Below, piece after piece: positions 2,310-50,793 of a DNA stretch of 64,000 bases. Each line of letters opens with the position of its first letter. Positions within the stretch are counted from its first letter, which is position 1. The notes beneath the pieces were generated by a model. The model was given only the letters and a program-made list of their open reading frames with translations, was not told the DNA's origin and did no database searches. The stretch is from the NCBI GenBank assembly GCA_040005095.1, contig JBDTZN010000003.1, forward strand, positions 12,089 to 76,088, given 5' to 3'. The position numbers were made by a program, and so were the translations under genes. This stretch comes from Thermoleophilia bacterium (lineage in GTDB: Bacteria; Actinomycetota; Thermoleophilia; Gaiellales; Gaiellaceae).

Positions 2310-3149
2310 GTGGCCACCTTCCGCTACGCCGTCGCGGACGTTTTCACCAACCGGCCCCTCAGCGGCAATCAGGTCGCGGTCTTCACCGATGCTCGCGAGG
2401 TTCCCGAGAACTCGCTTCAGGCGATCGCGCGGGAGATGAACTACTCGGAGAGCGTGTTCGTCTATCCGCCCGAAGCCGGAGGCCACGTCCGGATTCGGAT
2501 CTTCACTCCGACGCTCGAGCTCCCCTTTGCCGGCCATCCCATCCTCGGCACCTCCTTCGTGCTCGGCGGCCCGCTGCAGCTCGGCGTGATCGTGATCGAG
2601 ACGCCGGCCGGGCTTGTACCGGTGGAGTTGGAGCGGGAGGGAGCGAGGATCGTTTTCGGACGAATGACGCAGCCGATCCCGACGTGGCGGCCGTTCGAGC
2701 GCGAGGGCGACCTGCTGCGTGCGCTCGGCGTCGAGCGCTCGGAGCTCCCGGTGGAGGTCTACGACCTCGGGCCCACGCACGTCTACGTTGTGCTCGGCTC
2801 GCGGGAGGAGGTGGCTGCGCTCGACCCCGACCTGCCCGCGCTCGCAGAGCTAGAGGTGGGGGCCAACTGCGTGGCCGGCTCCGGCGCGCGGTGGAAGACG
2901 CGCATGTTCGCGCCGTTCCACGGCGTCGCCGAGGATCCCGCCACCGGCTCGGCTGCAGGCCCGCTCGCCGTGCATCTCGCGCGCCACGGCCGCATCGCGT
3001 TCGGCGACGAGATCGAGATCGAGCAGGGCGCCGAGATCCAGCGGCCGTCGAAGCTGTTCGCCAGGGCCGACGGTTCCGCGGAGAAGATCGAGCACGTCGA
3101 GGTCGGCGGCTCGGCGGTGCTGGTCGCGCGCGGCGACCTGCAGATCTAG
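2310..3149 (+). CDS. PhzF-family isomerase
   Basis: The GTG at 2310 follows the upstream TAG. The product VATFRYAVADVFTNRPLSGNQVAVFTDA...HPILGTSFVL...EDPATGSAAGPLAVHL is typical of the PhzF/YddE family. The upstream part of the track ORF is Arg-rich shadow. Confidence 0.85.
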   Translation: MATFRYAVADVFTNRPLSGNQVAVFTDAREVPENSLQAIAREMNYSESVFVYPPEAGGHVRIRIFTPTLELPFAGHPILGTSFVLGGPLQLGVIVIETPAGLVPVELEREGARIVFGRMTQPIPTWRPFEREGDLLRALGVERSELPVEVYDLGPTHVYVVLGSREEVAALDPDLPALAELEVGANCVAGSGARWKTRMFAPFHGVAEDPATGSAAGPLAVHLARHGRIAFGDEIEIEQGAEIQRPSKLFARADGSAEKIEHVEVGGSAVLVARGDLQI

Positions 3150-3541
3150 CCCCGCAGTTCGACCGCGAGAATCTCGGGCAGCTCGAGCGTCAGTGCGCGC
3201 CAGAAGCGGCCGCCGTCCCGTGAGAGGAAGAGGCGGTTGCGGGCCGCGAAGAGAACGACGTCCGGATCGTCCTCGTCGATCGCCACAGCGACTCCGCGGG
3301 GGAGTCCGCCTCCCCGCTCGCGCCAGGTGCGACCCGCGTCGTGGGACACGGCGAGCGGAGGGCGGCGATCGACGATCGCGACGACGGTCGAGCCCACGGC
3401 GGCCACGGCAACGATCAGGGGAAGCGAGAGCTTCGGCGTCTCCGGGCGCTCGAGCCGTTCGTCCGCTGTGAAGTCGAGCAGCTCTTCCTCGTCGAGATCG
3501 ACCTCGAAAACGCCGTCGGCGGTCTCGACCGCTGCTTTCAC
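3146..3541 (-). CDS. Small membrane-anchored protein with two BNR/Asp-box motifs
   Basis: GTG 3541 overlaps the kinase stop (GTGA). It has one hydrophobic helix (LSLPLIVAVAAVGSTVVAIV) and Asp-boxes SHDAGRTW and SRDGGRFW (consensus S-x-D-x-G-x-T-W). Confidence 0.6.
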   Translation of the reverse strand: MKAAVETADGVFEVDLDEEELLDFTADERLERPETPKLSLPLIVAVAAVGSTVVAIVDRRPPLAVSHDAGRTWRERGGGLPRGVAVAIDEDDPDVVLFAARNRLFLSRDGGRFWRALTLELPEILAVELRG

Positions 3542-4367: not shown

Positions 4368-5696
4368 CTACGCGAGCGCGACGCGGCGGCGTGTGACGGA
4401 GCCCACGGCAAGTGCGAGCACGAAGGCGGTGCCGAAGCTCGGCAGCGACGCGCCGCCGAAGGGCAGGGCGCTCGGGTGGAAGTGCTCCACGATGCTGGTC
4501 CACCACGACGGGCCGACCGGCGCGAGCCACTGGTAGAGCGCGAAGCCGGCGAGCCACGACGCGATCAGCTCGGGCCGCACTGCCGGCCCGTCGAAGAGCA
4601 CGTCCACGTCGTAGTGCCGGCCGGCGAGCAGCCAGTCCGCGAGCAGGACGCCGAAGAGCGGGACGAAGAATGAGCCGAGCAGGAACAGGAAGTCCTGGTA
4701 GTTCCGCAGGTCGATCACGAGCGCCCCGGCCGTCGCGACCGCGGCCACGCCCGCGATGAGCAGCCGCTGGGGGGCGCGCGGGAACGCGTTCTGCAAGGAC
4801 ACGGCTCCCGAGTAGACGTTCGCGAACGCCTCGTCGCTCTCGTCCACGGTCAGGGCGAGCAGGGCCAGGATCGACGCCAGGCCGCCGGCCGCGACCACTG
4901 CGGGAATCGCGGCCGCGTCGCCGAGGTCGCGTGTCAGCAGGAGGATCGCGCCGAGCAAGAACAGGCCCACGGTCGGCAGGAGGTATCCGATCGCGACGCC
5001 CCAGAAGGCGCTGCGCCGGTCGCGTGCGAAACGGGTGTAGTCCGCTGCGAGCGGCGTCCACGAGACGATGCTCGCGAGCACGAGGTCGACGCCCGGCCAG
5101 AACGCATCATGCCCGGTCCCCGGCTTCGACCAAACCGCGCCGACGTGCTGCCCGTGAACGGCCCACCACGCCAGGTACGCGAGCGAGGCGACGACGACGT
5201 AGACGGCGAACTTGCGGACGTAGCGGCGCACGAACCCGACCGGGCCGACGAAGGCGAGGGCCGTCGCGATCGCGCCCATCGCGACCGTCCAGAGCGGCTT
5301 GCCGCCGAAGCCGAAGACCTCTTGCGAGAGCGCGCTCGCCGCGGTGGCGATGATGATCAACTCGAAGACCGACCAGCCGAGGCATTGCAGGACGTTGAGC
5401 GCAGTGGGGACGAGCGACCCGCGTCGTCCGAGCGGCGCGCGCAACACGACCATCGCCGGCACGCGCGCGTCGGCGCCGATCATCCCTGCGACGCCGAGCA
5501 TCGCGTTGCCGACGATGCCCGCGACGAGGATCGCAGCGAACGCCCCGCCGAGCGAGAGCGCCGGGACGAGGAACGCGCCGGCGACGATCACGAGCAGCGA
5601 GACGGACAGGTTGCCCCAGAGCAGGAACGTGTCCAGGAACCCGAGCACGCGCAAGCGCTCCGGAACGGGCTCGATTCCCCAGTTAGGCGTCGCCAT
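4368..5696 (-). CDS. NCS1 (purine-cytosine permease/CytX-like) transporter
   Basis: A 442-aa polytopic membrane protein (MATPNWGIEPVPERLRVLGFLDTFLLWGNLSVSLLV...). It lies directly downstream of a TPP riboswitch. Confidence 0.85.
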   Translation of the reverse strand: MATPNWGIEPVPERLRVLGFLDTFLLWGNLSVSLLVIVAGAFLVPALSLGGAFAAILVAGIVGNAMLGVAGMIGADARVPAMVVLRAPLGRRGSLVPTALNVLQCLGWSVFELIIIATAASALSQEVFGFGGKPLWTVAMGAIATALAFVGPVGFVRRYVRKFAVYVVVASLAYLAWWAVHGQHVGAVWSKPGTGHDAFWPGVDLVLASIVSWTPLAADYTRFARDRRSAFWGVAIGYLLPTVGLFLLGAILLLTRDLGDAAAIPAVVAAGGLASILALLALTVDESDEAFANVYSGAVSLQNAFPRAPQRLLIAGVAAVATAGALVIDLRNYQDFLFLLGSFFVPLFGVLLADWLLAGRHYDVDVLFDGPAVRPELIASWLAGFALYQWLAPVGPSWWTSIVEHFHPSALPFGGASLPSFGTAFVLALAVGSVTRRRVALA

Positions 5697-5697
5697 T

Positions 5698-5783
5698 CGC
5701 GCTCCCTTCGCCGGTACGAACCGGATCAGGTTCTACGGGTGTGATCTCAGCCCCGAGCGGGGCACCCCGGTCACCGGAACTCT
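5698..5783 (-). promoter_or_regulatory. TPP (THI-box) riboswitch in the 5' leader of the NCS1 permease operon
   Basis: The minus-strand RNA reads CCGGGGUGCCCCGCUCGGGGCUGAGAUCACACCCGUAGAACCUGAUCCGGUUCGUACCGGCGAAGGGAGCGCGAAUG. It carries the conserved GGGGUGC, CUGAGA, ACCC, AACCUGAUC-GG and GCGAAGGGA blocks. The GGGAG Shine-Dalgarno lies inside the 3' conserved block, 5 nt before the AUG. Confidence 0.85.
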
Positions 5784-46728: not shown

Positions 46729-46748
46729 GTTTTCGTCGTAGAAAAGGA

Positions 46749-46776
46749 GAAGCCCCGGCTGCGGCTCCGGGGCTTC
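46749..46776 (+). terminator. Hairpin GAAGCCCCGG-N8-CCGGGGCTTC, 20 nt after the MFS stop; putative intrinsic terminator
   Basis: Seen directly in the sequence. It is followed by GATCCGTTTGG. Confidence 0.6.
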
Positions 46777-47090
46777 GATCCGTTTGGCGCTTGTCGGGGC
46801 GATTCTCCCGGAAGCCTTGGCTCTGCGGCCCAGCCACGCTTCCGAGCTTTGTACCGCCTCGGCTTTGGTGCGCCCATGCAGTCGGACTGGCGTCTGACCG
46901 GCTGCAAGTGGGCTCACCATAGGCCGTGTCCGTCGGTCCGTCAAGTACCTCAGTCAAGTGATCTTGCAATTTGTGAGTTCACCGAGAAGGTGACTCCATA
47001 TGCCCCTTTAGGGGGATGGCCCGAACGGACGACTTGCAGTTTTGTGAAGTATAGGTTTCACTTCCCCTGAGGAACCTGCACTCGACCGCA

Positions 47091-48437
47091 ATGAGCACGC
47101 GCACTGACACCCGTCAGCACCGCCAGACCCAGCCCTCGGGGCTGCGCCTGGGCGAGCGCCTGCGGCAGCTCCGGGTTTCGGCGAATCTGACCCAGACCGA
47201 CGTGGCCGGCGAGCGCTTCTCCAAGGAGTACGTCAGCCAGATCGAGCGAGGGAAGACCCGTCCCACGCGCGAGACGATCGAATGGCTCGCCGAGCGGCTG
47301 AGCGTCGACGCGAGCTTTCTCGCCAACGGCGTCTCCGCCGACGAGCGCGGCCGGGTCGACGCGGTTCTGACGCGCGCCGAAGCGCTTGTCGAGGCCGACC
47401 AGAACGACGAGGCGCTCGAGCAGCTCGACGGCGTCCACTCGGCGGTTCTCGCCACCGGACTGCCGGAGCTCGAGGTCAAGCATCTGACGCTCGCCTCGCG
47501 TGCGCGTCTGACCAACGGCGACGTCCGCGGCGCGATCGAGCTGCTCACGCAGGCACGCTCGCTCAGCGAAGCACCCGAGTTTTCCGACGTCGACCGCGCC
47601 GAAGTCCTGTTCCGGCTCGGCACCTGCCGCTATGCGCTCTCGAGCATCGCGACGGCAGTCGGCCTCTTCAACGAGGCACTCACGCTTGCAGAGCGCTCGG
47701 GCCTGCCGTGCGACCTGCTCCGCTCGAACATTCTCGGCTACCGCTCCCGGTGCTATCGCCGGCAGCGCGACTTCGAGGCCGCGCGTGAGGACGTCGAGCG
47801 CGCGCTCGAGCTCGCCGAGGCCGTCGACGACCCCCGCGCCGTCGCCCGCGTCTACTTCAACGCCTCGCTCGTCGCCGAGCGCCAGGGCCACTGGGTGCTC
47901 GCCCGCTCGTACGCAGAGCGCGCGAAGGCGCAGTACGAGGAGCTCTCGGACCGGCTGAACGTCAGCCGGCTCATGAACAACCTCGGTGGCCTCAACTTCC
48001 TCCTCGGCAAGCCCGAGGACGCGATCGTCCATCTCAAGGACGCCTTCCGCGTCGCCCTCGACATGGGCGAGAACGCCGAGGCTGCGCAGGCCGTGTCCTC
48101 GCTTGCCCAGGTGCATCTGCGCACCGGCGAGGTTCAGATCGCCGAGGAGCAGGCGCGCCATGCGCTGGAGCTGCTCGACGGCCGCGAGGATTTCCTCGAC
48201 GAGATCGGCAACGCCCGCCTCGTGCTCGGCCGCTCGCTGCTCGAGCAGGGCCGGCTCGACGAGGCCGAGGCTGCATTCGCAGAGGCTGACTCGAGCTTCG
48301 AACAGCTTTCTTCCGCAAGTCACCGCGCACTCGCCTGGGTCGCCATGGGCGATCTCGCGACGCGCCGCGGGGACGACCGCGGAGCCGCCCACCATTACCG
48401 CAACGCAGCCGAAGCGCTGCAGGACTTCCGTTTCTAA
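47091..48437 (+). CDS. XRE-family HTH transcriptional regulator with C-terminal TPR-like repeats
   Basis: The HTH is LGERLRQLRVSANLTQTDVAGERFSKEYVSQIERGKTRPT. Repeated A..L..LG......G....A helical-repeat patterns run to residue 448. Confidence 0.85.
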   Translation: MSTRTDTRQHRQTQPSGLRLGERLRQLRVSANLTQTDVAGERFSKEYVSQIERGKTRPTRETIEWLAERLSVDASFLANGVSADERGRVDAVLTRAEALVEADQNDEALEQLDGVHSAVLATGLPELEVKHLTLASRARLTNGDVRGAIELLTQARSLSEAPEFSDVDRAEVLFRLGTCRYALSSIATAVGLFNEALTLAERSGLPCDLLRSNILGYRSRCYRRQRDFEAAREDVERALELAEAVDDPRAVARVYFNASLVAERQGHWVLARSYAERAKAQYEELSDRLNVSRLMNNLGGLNFLLGKPEDAIVHLKDAFRVALDMGENAEAAQAVSSLAQVHLRTGEVQIAEEQARHALELLDGREDFLDEIGNARLVLGRSLLEQGRLDEAEAAFAEADSSFEQLSSASHRALAWVAMGDLATRRGDDRGAAHHYRNAAEALQDFRF

Positions 48438-48456
48438 GGGAAGGGAGGTGAACTTC

Positions 48457-48576
48457 TTGACTCAGGCTCGCCTCATCTACGTGATCCTCCTCGTCTGTCT
48501 CGTCGCGTCTCTCGTCGCGTCCCTCATGGGCAAAAGTGCTCCGGGACTCGGGATGTCGGACGGTCCGAGGGGCTAG
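48457..48576 (+). CDS. Candidate 39-aa secreted/membrane mini-protein (possible signalling propeptide)
   Basis: TTG 48457 lies 8 nt after GGGAGG, with an alternative in-frame GTG at 48448. The product is MTQARLIYVILLVCLVASLVASLMGKSAPGLGMSDGPRG. It is hidden in the tail of shadow ORF 47986-48576. Confidence 0.4.
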   Translation: MTQARLIYVILLVCLVASLVASLMGKSAPGLGMSDGPRG

Positions 48577-48586
48577 GCTCTTCGGG

Positions 48587-49474
48587 GTGCATGCGGCAGG
48601 ACCTGCGGCCTTACTCGTCGCGCTGGTTGCGACGGGCTGCGGATCGAGCGGCGGTACCACCCTTCAGAGCTTGTGGCGACAGCCCGGCGAAAGCGTCGGT
48701 CTGGTTCCGGGCACGTCGGATTACGCCGCCGGCTCGATCAGAGTCTCCTTCCTCGTCATCGGACACGACGGACGCCCGGTTAATCGGCCAGAGGCCCGTC
48801 TCTGGCTCGCGCGTTCGCGAGAGGCCACCCCTCTCGCGAGCGCGACGGCCTCCCTCGAGTCGGTGGGCAGCCCAGGGGCCGTCACCGACGCGGGGGATGT
48901 GACCCATCTCTACGTCGGCCGGATCCGTGTCGACAAGCCCGGCCGCTACTGGCTGCTGGCCGAGCCGGTCGGGGGAACGCCGATCCGGGCGCTCGGGACG
49001 ATCGACGTTAAATCCCGGAGCGTCTCGCCGGCCCTCGGCGCGCGCGCGTACCCGTCGCGGACGCCGACGCTCGCCGCCGTGGGAGGACGCGCCGCCCTCA
49101 TCACGACGCGCCGACCCCCGGACCGCGCCCTCCTCCGCGACTCGATCGCGGGCTCGCTCGCGAGTCACGCACCGTTCGTGGTCGTCTTCGCCACGCCCAA
49201 GTTCTGCACGAGCCGGGCGTGCGGCCCGGTCGTGGACGTGGTCGACTCGGTGCGCAAGCGATTCGCAGGGCGGGGCGTCCGCTTCATCCACGTTGAGATC
49301 TACCGCGGAAACGATTCGCAGAACGGTCTCAACCGGTGGGTGCGCGAGTGGTGCTTGCCCAGCGAGCCGTGGACGTTCGTCGTCGGCCGCGACGGCCGGA
49401 TCAAGGCGAAGTTCGAGGGTTCCGTATCGGCCGGCGAGCTCGCATCGGCCGTGCGGATTCTCCTCACGCATTAG
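48587..49474 (+). CDS. Putative lipoprotein with C-terminal thioredoxin-like region (FATPKFCTSRACGP)
   Basis: The lipobox is LVALVATGCGSS. The track start GTG 48536 would overlap the mini-ORF. GTG 48587 is the alternative, so the start is uncertain. Confidence 0.55.
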   Translation: MHAAGPAALLVALVATGCGSSGGTTLQSLWRQPGESVGLVPGTSDYAAGSIRVSFLVIGHDGRPVNRPEARLWLARSREATPLASATASLESVGSPGAVTDAGDVTHLYVGRIRVDKPGRYWLLAEPVGGTPIRALGTIDVKSRSVSPALGARAYPSRTPTLAAVGGRAALITTRRPPDRALLRDSIAGSLASHAPFVVVFATPKFCTSRACGPVVDVVDSVRKRFAGRGVRFIHVEIYRGNDSQNGLNRWVREWCLPSEPWTFVVGRDGRIKAKFEGSVSAGELASAVRILLTH

Positions 49475-49492: not shown

Positions 49493-50793
49493 ATGGGTGC
49501 GCGGATCGAGCGGCTGAAACGGACGTTGCATGTGGGGCGCGTCGCGCGGCAGAGTGGTTTGCTGCGCGTGCTCGGCGAGATCGGCGTCGTCGGCGACCGG
49601 CCCGCCACGCGCGAAGGCGCGCGCAGGTTCCGGCTCGCGCTCGAGGAGCTTGGCACGACCTACATCAAGCTCGGCCAGCTCCTCTCGTCCCGTCCCGACC
49701 TGCTCCCAGACGTTTACATCGAGGAGCTCGACCGGCTCGTCGACCAGGTGCCACCCGTTCCGTTCGCGGAGATCGACCGGACGATTCGTGAGGAGCTGCC
49801 GGACGACGTGTTCACGAGCGTCGATCCGGAGCCGCTCGCGACCGCGGCCCTGGGTGACCGAGCGGGTGCTCGTGCTCGAGCGGATCGACGGCGAGAAGGT
49901 CAGCGAGGGCCACGGGCTCTCGGAGGAGAGGAGCCGCGACCTGGCGCGTTCCTTCTTCCGCGCGTACGTGCACCAGGTGACCGTCGACGGCGTCTACCAC
50001 GCTGATCCGCACCGCGGAAACGTGCTCCTGACGCCCGACGGCCGGCTGGCGCTGCTGGACTTCGGCCTGCTCGGGCGGCTCGACGACGACACGCGGAGGA
50101 ACCTCGCCCTGCTCCTGATGGCGGTGGCACAGAACCGCGCGGACGACGTCGCGGATCTCATCCTCTCCTTTCGCTCACCGACCTGTCCTCCAACGAGGCC
50201 GGTTTTCGCGCCGAGCTGCGCAGGAAGCTCCCCCGGTACCAGTGGCGCCCGCTCTCCGGGATTCAGGCGGGAGAGGCACTCGCCTACCTCCAGCGCATCT
50301 CGGTGCGGTATGCGATCCGCCTCCCGCCGAGCTTCGCACTCGTAGGGAAGACGCTGTCTCAGGCGACTCGATCGCGCGGATGCTCGACCCGGCGCTCGAC
50401 CCGATTCAGTTGCTCGAGGAGGACGCGCTCGAGGGGATGATTATGGAGGCGGAGCGGCGCCTGGAGCCAGGCTCGCTCTTCTCGCTGCTCTTCACGCAAC
50501 TCGAGCCGCTCGTGAAGATGCCACGGCACGTCAGCCACCTCGTCGGCCAGCTCGAGACCGGGACGATGAAGGTCGGGATCGTCCCGACCGACCTGGGCGA
50601 GATCGAGGCGGTCGCGCGGTCGGCGGCGAACCGGATTGGCGCAGCGCTGATCGTCGTGGGCCTGCTGATCTCGTCGGCCCTCCTCGCGCGTGTCCACGAC
50701 CTGCCGTGGGTCGCGGCCGTCGGTTTCGTCCTCGCATCCGTCCTCGGGCTGTACATGGTCTGGAAGATCATTCGAACGCCCGGCGAGCTCTAG
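49493..50793 (+). pseudogene. UbiB/ABC1-family atypical kinase gene inactivated by an internal deletion and at least two further frameshifts
   Basis: Homology runs through four frame segments. Segment 1 is ELGTTYIKLGQLLSSRPDLLPDVYIEELDRLVDQVPP...DPEPLATAA. Segment 2 is WVTERVLVLERIDG...GVYHADPHRGNVLL...LLDFG...ADDVADLILS. Segment 3 is LTDLSSNEAGFRAELRRKLPRY...IRLPPSFALVGKTLSQA. Segment 4 is DSIARMLDPALDPIQ... with two TM helices. The VAVKV/ATP-lysine region is missing. Confidence 0.75.

Follow-up and report, generated by a model that had tools for sequence, protein, structure and literature searches.

The window analysed here is a stretch of 64,000 nucleotides from a Thermoleophilia bacterium of the family Gaiellaceae (assembly GCA_040005095.1, contig JBDTZN010000003.1, positions 12,089 to 76,088), with a GC content of 67-72%; all coordinates are those of this stretch. 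It encodes a 448-residue regulator on the plus strand (47091-48437, with a TAA stop at 48435-48437) which consists of an N-terminal XRE-type helix-turn-helix (HTH) followed by tetratricopeptide repeats (TPR). Nineteen nucleotides downstream lies a very small open reading frame (ORF) of 39 codons, referred to here as the mini-ORF (48457-48576, plus strand), which encodes MTQARLIYVILLVCLVASLVASLMGKSAPGLGMSDGPRG, a candidate secreted propeptide. On the other side the regulator gene is flanked by a candidate small RNA of about 175 nucleotides (46741-46915, minus strand) which is divergent from it. The initial annotation of this DNA proposed that regulator and mini-ORF form a peptide signalling pair of the RRNPP type, and the properties of both genes, of the small RNA and of the conserved sequences between them are described here with this proposal in mind. 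Close homologues of the regulator bear the names Gaiellaceae, Gaiellales or Thermoleophilia. The Gaiellales are among the most abundant and least cultured Actinomycetota of soils. Comparisons were made across 81 Gaiellales loci, namely the window and the best 80 of 594 relatives (one genome per species, regulator identity 63-95%); related loci carry L numbers throughout.

The mini-ORF and its encoded peptide

The mini-ORF opens with a TTG at 48457, which is preceded at a distance of 8 nucleotides by the Shine-Dalgarno sequence GGGAGG (48443-48448, plus strand, read directly from the sequence), and closes with a TAG at 48574-48576. The start codon, its position 19 nucleotides past the TAA of the regulator gene and its spacing from GGGAGG are as the initial annotation had given them. 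The same holds for the location of the mini-ORF in the tail of a 196-residue shadow ORF (47986-48576), which hides it, and for a GC content at third codon positions (GC3) of about three quarters, the measured value being 0.769. GC3 of the regulator gene is 0.88.

A comparison of orthologous regulator loci had been put forward as a check on the mini-ORF, and an equivalent that is conserved at the amino acid level is present after the regulator gene in all 81 loci, starting 8-43 nucleotides past the regulator stop codon. An A/GGGAGG(TG) box is found 4-15 nucleotides before the start in 76 of the 81, most commonly at a spacing of 5-8 nucleotides, and the start codon is GTG in 38 loci, ATG in 33 and TTG in 10. 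Seventy-nine copies are intact and encode proteins of 29-68 residues. The other two are disrupted, by a frameshift in L006 and by an in-frame TAG in L050, and both retain the C-terminal motif downstream of the lesion. Since the two genes are usually separated by 8-43 nucleotides only, they are almost certainly co-transcribed.

Among 13 phylogenetically independent close pairs, differences between mini-ORFs are distributed over the three codon positions as 45/31/131, and the codon changes amount to 112 synonymous versus 62 non-synonymous. In L033 and L034 the mini-ORFs differ by four changes, every one of which is synonymous. Judged by this pattern of substitutions, the mini-ORF is under purifying selection. 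As a frame of 39 codons that stays open is nothing unusual at 69% GC, a stricter scan was made for a combination of features: a Shine-Dalgarno sequence and start codon, a length of 25-70 codons, a basic N-terminal end, a hydrophobic window and a hydrophobic-x-D-G motif within the last 14 residues. Applied to both strands of the related loci and the window, 1.47 Mb in all, the scan returned 57 matches at the mini-ORF site and none elsewhere. A profile built from these 57 peptides retrieves many proteins of 34-67 residues from JGI, ENA and NCBI collections (5.8 billion sequences searched), with E-values down to 1e-7. These small proteins are annotated as hypothetical, and no Pfam family was found on any protein that the profile retrieved. 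Mini-ORFs of this family are sometimes called by gene finders and have no earlier description. The comparative evidence indicates that the 39-codon mini-ORF is a real gene. Two other roles considered for it were ruled out: that of an RNA element, given a folding z-score of 0.04 and no match in Rfam, and that of a leader or coupling peptide for the lipoprotein gene downstream, which no more than 33 of 80 loci contain.

The peptide itself consists of a short charged N-terminal end, a hydrophobic stretch and a polar tail, in agreement with the initial description of the mini-ORF product. In the window the signal-peptide-like part comprises residues 1-25 (48457-48531, plus strand), made up of the n-region MTQAR, the 19-residue core LIYVILLVCLVASLVASLM and a glycine. 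The tail that follows the core is 15 residues long, of which KSAPGLGMSDGPRG (residues 26-39; 48532-48573, plus strand) is the predicted exported part. The core has a length of 19 residues instead of the 15 seen in the closest relatives, L001-L003, because of a 12-nucleotide tandem duplication, GTCGCGTCTCTC (48502-48513) and GTCGCGTCCCTC (48514-48525), both on the plus strand, which encodes VASL-VASL where those relatives have a single VASL. Across the family the N-terminal end is basic, with a net charge of at least +1, in 80 of 81 peptides, and the hydrophobic core of the 79 intact peptides has a median length of 15 residues (interquartile range 15-18). The mean charge of the N-terminal flank is +2.25 as against +0.30 for the C-terminal flank, and the N-terminal flank is the more positive one in 70 of the 79; by this excess of charge, the N-terminal end is predicted to be cytoplasmic and the tail external. 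Near the end of the core, 72 of 79 peptides have a site that agrees with the (-3,-1) rule, and L023, L026 and L076 encode canonical AxA signal peptides (..PGLAQA|K, ..GAALA|K) followed by long polar pro-regions. Taken as a whole, these sequence features fit export of the peptide by the Sec pathway.

The tail has a median length of 15 residues and only one strongly conserved feature, the motif G/S-[FMWLY]-x-D-G-x, which in the window is represented by G-M-S-D-G-P (residues 32-37; 48550-48567, plus strand), the candidate mature signal unit. Of the 81 peptides, 62 contain a hydrophobic-x-D-G motif and 69 a relaxed form of it, with the D and G conserved in at least 90% of the sequences in peptide alignment A3. 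The motif is located 5-12 residues from the C terminus, and between 1 and 6 residues follow the D-G core. Variants of the tail core include SWFDGH, GFFDGH, GMSDGG, G[ML]WDGP, GFSDG[AP], GFFDNW and GFQHGH. In L023, L026 and L076 two to four tandem SMFDGG/SNFDGG units are separated by variable linkers, which makes a released peptide of about six residues the probable functional entity. Inside a given regulator clade the peptide varies least over its last 6-10 residues. The tail variants are fixed inside clades of about 80% regulator identity or more, differ between clades and follow the regulator tree, so that phylogeny and co-adaptation are inseparable here. Some tails (L079, L037, L012/L013, L082) additionally carry inserts rich in His, Gly and Asp before the conserved core, such as GHGHDHGGGGGGGG in L079 and HGHGGDNGHGGG in L037, which by their composition may bind metals or act as flexible spacers.

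The regulator and its relation to known receptors

The HTH of the regulator is recognised by Pfam as HTH_31 (E 5.6e-12, residues 19-74; 47145-47312, plus strand) and HTH_3 (E 3.3e-8), which together cover residues 19-76. The remainder of the protein matches TPR_12 (1.5e-33), TPR_2 (2.5e-21), TPR_MalT (2.7e-14) and TPR_1 (1e-13), and these matches extend to residue 444, confirming the earlier reading of the product as an XRE-type HTH with TPR-like repeats that run to the C terminus. Orthologues in metagenome-assembled genomes of Gaiellaceae and Gaiellales share 63-96% identity and have about 448 residues, and full-length matches are mostly 445-474 residues long. An AlphaFold2 model based on an alignment of 64 sequences (mean predicted local distance difference test score 90.6) shows five HTH helices and then 18 helices arranged as nine TPR-like pairs (residues 83-444; 47337-48422, plus strand). 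According to this model the regulator folds as an XRE HTH joined to a nine-repeat TPR superhelix, a type of superhelix whose groove accommodates extended peptides.

When the model was compared with the Protein Data Bank (PDB) using Foldseek, the top matches were peptide-bound TPR superhelices of the eukaryotic LGN/Pins proteins, with template modelling (TM) scores of about 0.6 normalised to the query and about 0.8 normalised to the target; the best of them, 4wnd, 4wne and 3ro2, have values of 0.59-0.60 and 0.78-0.80 at E about 1e-10. LGN is also the best match among natural proteins in a profile search of PDB sequences, in which the TPR part of the regulator matches LGN and kinesin light chain, and it forms a superhelix of eight TPRs that binds extended peptides in its inner groove. 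LGN/Pins proteins are eukaryotic, have no HTH and belong to unrelated biology, and the match indicates a fold class and not a function. Structures of Rap-Phr complexes (4gyo, 8rsv, 8rst) and of apo NprR (5dbk) rank 35-50, with TM scores of 0.54-0.58 (query) and 0.64-0.69 (target). The profile search also yields ComR (E 1.6e-5) and PlcR (E 1.6e-3), both confined to residues 17-73 of the HTH, and a weak match to Rap (6t3h, E 8e-4, residues 280-359). On sequence and model together, the regulator corresponds to an HTH-type RRNPP receptor in architecture and fold class, without specific homology to one.

Among the closest characterised systems, NprR-NprX and PlcR-PapR of the Bacillus cereus group resemble the locus in layout. 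They too have a cytoplasmic receptor of about 300-450 residues with an N-terminal XRE HTH and C-terminal TPRs, followed by a small co-directional gene for a Sec-type pre-peptide (predicted in the present case) whose active part is C-terminal (a candidate in the present case). In fold, NprR (5dbk) and the regulator can be superimposed with TM scores of 0.55 (query) and 0.66 (target). Unlike these receptors, the regulator shows no detectable homology past the HTH, and its TPRs are canonical (TPR_12, TPR_1, TPR_2) and not degenerate; its host is a member of the Thermoleophilia and not of the Bacillota, and its gene is part of the syntenic single-copy core of an order. Rap-Phr systems likewise consist of a TPR receptor gene followed by a small co-transcribed pre-peptide gene, and 4gyo and 8rsv are among the fold matches mentioned above. 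In contrast to the regulator, Rap proteins have no HTH and act on proteins, and their cassettes are accessory, multi-copy and often located on mobile elements.

The divergent small RNA and the neighbourhood of the pair

The 362-nucleotide region 5' of the regulator gene contains blocks whose conservation reaches 90% or more in an alignment of 79 upstream regions. One of these is a direct repeat, GTCAAGT-N6-GTCAAGTGA, that is GTCAAGT-N6-GTCAAGT(GA), located at 46940-46959, which reads as ACTTGAC twice on the minus strand and represents a candidate operator. It is followed on the plus strand by a palindrome, ATGCCCCTTTAGGGGGATG (47000-47018), and by the block CTTGCA...GTGAAGT...TTTCACTT (47033-47063). 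Nine GTSAAGT sites exist in the window, and their sole cluster is found here, at 46940, 46953 and 47044. These conserved boxes, which lie between the small RNA and the regulator gene, are likely to be operator, promoter or 5'-untranslated region elements.

The small RNA was recognised by consensus scans for promoters and terminators and by covariation. Its promoter, TTGACG-17-TATGGT (46944-46916, minus strand; consensus of relatives TTGACT-17-TATAGT), overlaps through its -35 element with the repeat copy at 46940-46946, and a strong intrinsic terminator stem is located at 46776-46749 on the minus strand. It could be extracted from 72 of the 81 loci and recurs beside regulators of 45-48% identity. 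In an analysis of 49 base pairs over 50 sequences, the share of paired cells is 78.9%, compared to 51% at most when the partners are slid. Both sides change in 33 of the 49 pairs, and none of 500 shuffles reaches the observed value. RNAalifold shows compensatory changes, the folding z-score is -2.4, and two hairpin loops carry an invariant GCCGCAG. The small RNA has no match in Rfam. No minus-strand gene follows it among the ORFs listed for the window, L033 and L016, and the possibility that the conserved upstream block is the leader of such a gene was ruled out, as it faces the 3' end of a plus-strand gene, for a TetR-family protein in L033 and L016 and for a major facilitator superfamily (MFS) transporter in the window. 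The regulator could bind the TCAAGT boxes and control the small RNA, in parallel with AimR-aimX and agr P2/P3-RNAIII, and the small RNA is a plausible output of the regulator.

The gene order around the pair is conserved and consists of acs (minus strand), the MFS transporter gene, usually a TetR gene, the regulator gene, variably a lipoprotein gene and ubiB, and then selD. On this evidence regulator and peptide constitute an order-wide, syntenic, single-copy chromosomal core module in a housekeeping neighbourhood. Outside the 81 loci the pairing can be followed to more distant regulators. At 45% regulator identity (L082) a 33-residue peptide with the tail ..GGHGHGGGFVGH is encoded 22 nucleotides downstream, and at 44% (L085, L086) the peptide MINKGTLARLFVSVAAFASLASLAGGFFDGH is found 151 nucleotides downstream, past a hairpin. 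At 38% (L084) the peptide gene is convergent with the regulator gene and its product ends in the tail ..GGGWFDGS. The pairing therefore outlasts the operon structure, which argues for functional coupling and against hitch-hiking. At 32% identity (L081) the hydrophobic mini-peptide is replaced by a soluble 95-residue SHOCT-domain protein encoded 11 nucleotides downstream (L081 2199-2486), which may be a different type of partner in a sister family. The only Streptomyces plasmid locus inspected (H1, 27% identity) has no annotated mini-ORF beside its regulator gene, the 3' end of which is overlapped by a convergent gene that leaves no room for one. Because neither L081 nor this plasmid locus has the mini-peptide, the system seems to be confined to the clade in which regulators share roughly 38% identity or more.

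In the window and the related loci, the neighbouring genes examined include no conserved modification, immunity or export gene beside the pair and no radical-SAM or other modifying enzyme. The lipoprotein gene (48587-49474, plus strand), which starts 10 nucleotides past the mini-ORF, encodes 295 residues with the lipobox LVATGC and a Cys-x4-Cys sequence, FCTSRAC, and has no match in Pfam or NCBIfam. It follows the pair in only 33 of the 80 related loci and is therefore placed outside the conserved unit. The next gene, a ubiB/ABC1-kinase-like gene (49493-50793, plus strand), looks disrupted: it has six in-frame stop codons in frame 1, three ORFs that overlap in different frames (49493-50005, 49530-50345 and 50242-50793) cover it, and its span is shorter than in relatives. 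It could be a pseudogene or the result of an assembly error. In many relatives about 1 kb separates the MFS gene from the small RNA, and in both loci inspected (L033 2903-3511; L016 about 2850-3500) this interval contains a TetR-family gene. This gene is missing from the window, at 46729-46740, and from its closest relatives, which represents a lineage-specific deletion. Elsewhere in the window a TPP riboswitch (RF00059, 64 bits, above the gathering threshold) is present on the minus strand at 5687-5779, directly upstream of the minus-strand ORF 4368-5696.

Proposed peptide signalling and the alternatives

By an operational definition, an RRNPP system has a propeptide of 10-100 residues that is secreted by Sec (SignalP class SP/SPI) or PptAB, and a receptor of 250-500 residues with TPRs detected by hidden Markov models at E < 1e-5, the two genes being direct neighbours at a distance of -60 to 400 bp (PMC10075063). 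At the present locus the propeptide would have 39 residues (29-68 in intact relatives), the receptor has 448 residues and a TPR_12 match at 1.5e-33, and the genes are 19 nucleotides apart in the window and 8-43 across the 81 loci. The pair shows four of these five features and an HTH in addition, and the remaining one, secretion by Sec, is plausible from the sequence of the peptide. In the literature covered, RRNPP systems are described only in Firmicutes and their mobile elements, and Actinomycetota have been described as using small-molecule signals (PMC10075063). No RRNPP-type pair in Actinomycetota was found in the searchable literature.

The reading preferred here is that the locus is a peptide-signalling module which is of the RRNPP type in its logic, not by descent, and which is conserved across the Gaiellales; the chances that this reading is correct appear about evenly balanced. 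The pre-peptide would be exported by Sec with its N-terminal end in the cytoplasm and its tail outside, and would be cut by signal peptidase I. The released pro-peptide would then be trimmed to about 6-8 residues that include the hydrophobic-x-D-G core (GMSDGP in the window), would accumulate with cell density and would be taken up again by an oligopeptide permease. Inside the cell the peptide may bind in the TPR groove of the regulator and alter its binding to DNA, for which the TCAAGT boxes in the divergent promoter region are the likely targets, the outputs being the adjacent small RNA and the operon of regulator and peptide itself. That the regulator senses a peptide at all is suggested by the conserved pairing and by the modelled fold.

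The presumed coupling to a small RNA has parallels in two other systems. In the arbitrium system (AimR-AimP-aimX) the mature signal is a C-terminal hexapeptide that ends in small residues, and the output is an adjacent small RNA. Like the arbitrium locus of Bacillus phages, the present one combines an HTH-TPR regulator gene with a candidate propeptide gene of about 40 codons downstream, and it has a conserved unit of about six residues and a small RNA that flanks the regulator. It differs from arbitrium in being chromosomal and not phage-borne, in that the small RNA is upstream and divergent instead of downstream, and in that no homology to AimR is detected. In the staphylococcal agr system the P2 operon for the peptide signal and P3-RNAIII are divergent from a shared control region with repeated boxes. 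A peptide operon and an RNA likewise diverge around repeated boxes in the window, which is an architectural analogy only, and agr relies on a histidine kinase in the membrane and on a cyclic thiolactone peptide, with no cytoplasmic TPR receptor. A bolder form of the proposal is that Gaiellales carry an ancient, vertically inherited quorum-sensing circuit of three parts, namely a Sec-exported propeptide with the hydrophobic-x-D-G motif, a cytoplasmic HTH-TPR receptor without detectable homology to RRNPP receptors of Bacillota, and a divergent structured small RNA with GCCGCAG loops as the main output. This can be put forward only tentatively, and it is rather more doubtful than the general reading of the locus as a peptide-signalling module. 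If true, it would mean that RRNPP-type signalling either arose independently outside Bacillota or has a very deep branch there, wired to a small RNA as in agr-RNAIII or arbitrium-aimX.

Several observations weigh against peptide signalling. In the profile search of the PDB the regulator does not reach the default thresholds by which RRNPP_detector assigns homology (E ≤ 1e-5, identity ≥ 20%, coverage ≥ 60%) for Rap, NprR, PlcR, PrgX/Rgg, AimR or ComR, and in Foldseek the Rap and NprR folds rank behind LGN/Pins, designed consensus TPRs and OGT. In classical RRNPP systems receptor and peptide diversify together. The TPR domain of the regulator is unusually conserved, with a mean column identity of 74-78%, while the peptide tails differ between clades. 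Close relatives with the tails MSDGPRG (the window and L003) and FADGPR (L001 and L002) are separated by only four regulator positions (5, 104, 368 and 414), which are too few to inform on a binding pocket. Unlike most RRNPP systems, the regulator is encoded by a single-copy syntenic core gene; there is no match to it in 50,697 phage records, and plasmid records yield only Streptomyces proteins of 27% identity. No oligopeptide permease is encoded within the 64-kb window, and the peptide might escape the predicted cleavage and remain anchored in the membrane. The claim of an RRNPP-type pair made in the initial annotation is therefore upheld in part. The layout, the conserved mini-ORF, the selection acting on it and the C-terminal motif all speak for it; homology to characterised RRNPP receptors, on the other hand, is not detectable, and the folds of Rap and NprR appear only at ranks 35-50. 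Two things had escaped that annotation, the character of the pair as a core module of the order and the divergent small RNA.

The simplest alternative, that the mini-ORF is a chance untranslated frame in GC-rich DNA, draws on the estimate from stop-codon frequencies that a frame of about 40 codons is open roughly half the time at 69% GC, and on the location of the mini-ORF within the tail of the shadow ORF. The comparative data effectively refute it and leave it a negligible probability, since all 81 loci have a Shine-Dalgarno sequence and start codon, the differences show an excess at third positions, the motif is conserved, the strict scan gave no match off the site and the folding z-score of 0.04 does not indicate an RNA. 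A precursor of a ribosomally synthesised and post-translationally modified peptide (RiPP), with the TPR protein as regulator or scaffold of the pathway, also has very little probability. Tandem core repeats occur in some RiPP precursors, and the tandem units of the peptide could be read in the same way; the regulator also has a weak NCBIfam match to the RiPP TPR protein HaaT. This match scores 38 bits against a cut-off of 1125 and reflects generic TPR similarity far below that cut-off, the mini-ORF matches no precursor family in NCBIfam or Pfam, and no conserved radical-SAM, cyclase, protease or transporter gene adjoins the pair, the neighbours (acs, MFS transporter, TetR, ubiB, selD) being housekeeping genes. 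Improbable, though less so than a RiPP precursor, is a sequestration switch in which the mini-protein is retained as a single-pass membrane protein and the TPR domain binds its cytoplasmic C-terminal motif, so that the regulator is tethered and released. TPR domains classically bind C-terminal peptides, TPR clamps binding EEVD or PTS1 C termini, and both the position of the motif 5-12 residues from the C terminus and the 19-residue hydrophobic segment in the window, which is close to transmembrane length, would suit such a switch. In 70 of 79 peptides, however, the charge distribution predicts an external tail, and a core with a median length of 15 residues is rather short to form a transmembrane helix. 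Signal peptides of a canonical cleavable type are present in L023, L026 and L076, and as 1-6 residues follow the D-G core, the distance between the motif and the free carboxyl end is not fixed.

More weight is due to the possibility that the small exported or membrane peptide is an effector with a function of its own, whether surface-active, antimicrobial, metal-binding or envelope-associated, and that the regulator senses another ligand or partner and simply controls the operon. This explanation is somewhat unlikely, and it accounts for co-transcription and conservation equally well. It would give a role to the His/Gly/Asp-rich inserts of tails such as those of L079 and L037, which could bind metals, and it would agree with the lipoprotein with Cys-x4-Cys encoded by the next gene in 33 of 80 loci and with the high conservation of the TPR domain in the face of variable tails. 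It is less easily reconciled with the survival of the pairing after loss of the operon, across the 151-nucleotide gap with its hairpin at 44% regulator identity and in the convergent arrangement at 38%, which fits a functional partnership better than regulated cargo. Furthermore, the only constrained part of the peptide is a unit of about six residues that can be repeated in tandem, as is typical of released signal peptides, and no other conserved modification, immunity or export gene accompanies the pair.

New here are the phylum in which a pair of RRNPP-like logic is found, its receptor lineage and its peptide family, with a probable link to a new small RNA. A pair that agrees with the RRNPP signature is a fixed feature of an entire order of dominant soil bacteria, and its tails are specific to each clade. 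Concrete candidate signals that can be synthesised (GMSDGP, SWFDGH, SMFDGG and GFWDGP) are at hand, as is a defined receptor, and the promoter of the small RNA, which carries TCAAGT boxes, is a candidate target. Should the peptide not be the ligand of the regulator, a conserved and unannotated family of micro-proteins that are predicted to be secreted, and a new small RNA, would still have been defined. If the peptide-signalling reading is true, it would widen the phylogenetic range of intracellular-receptor peptide signalling and bear on its evolutionary origin, and it would provide an experimental handle on a largely uncultured group as well as a new family of structured small RNAs.

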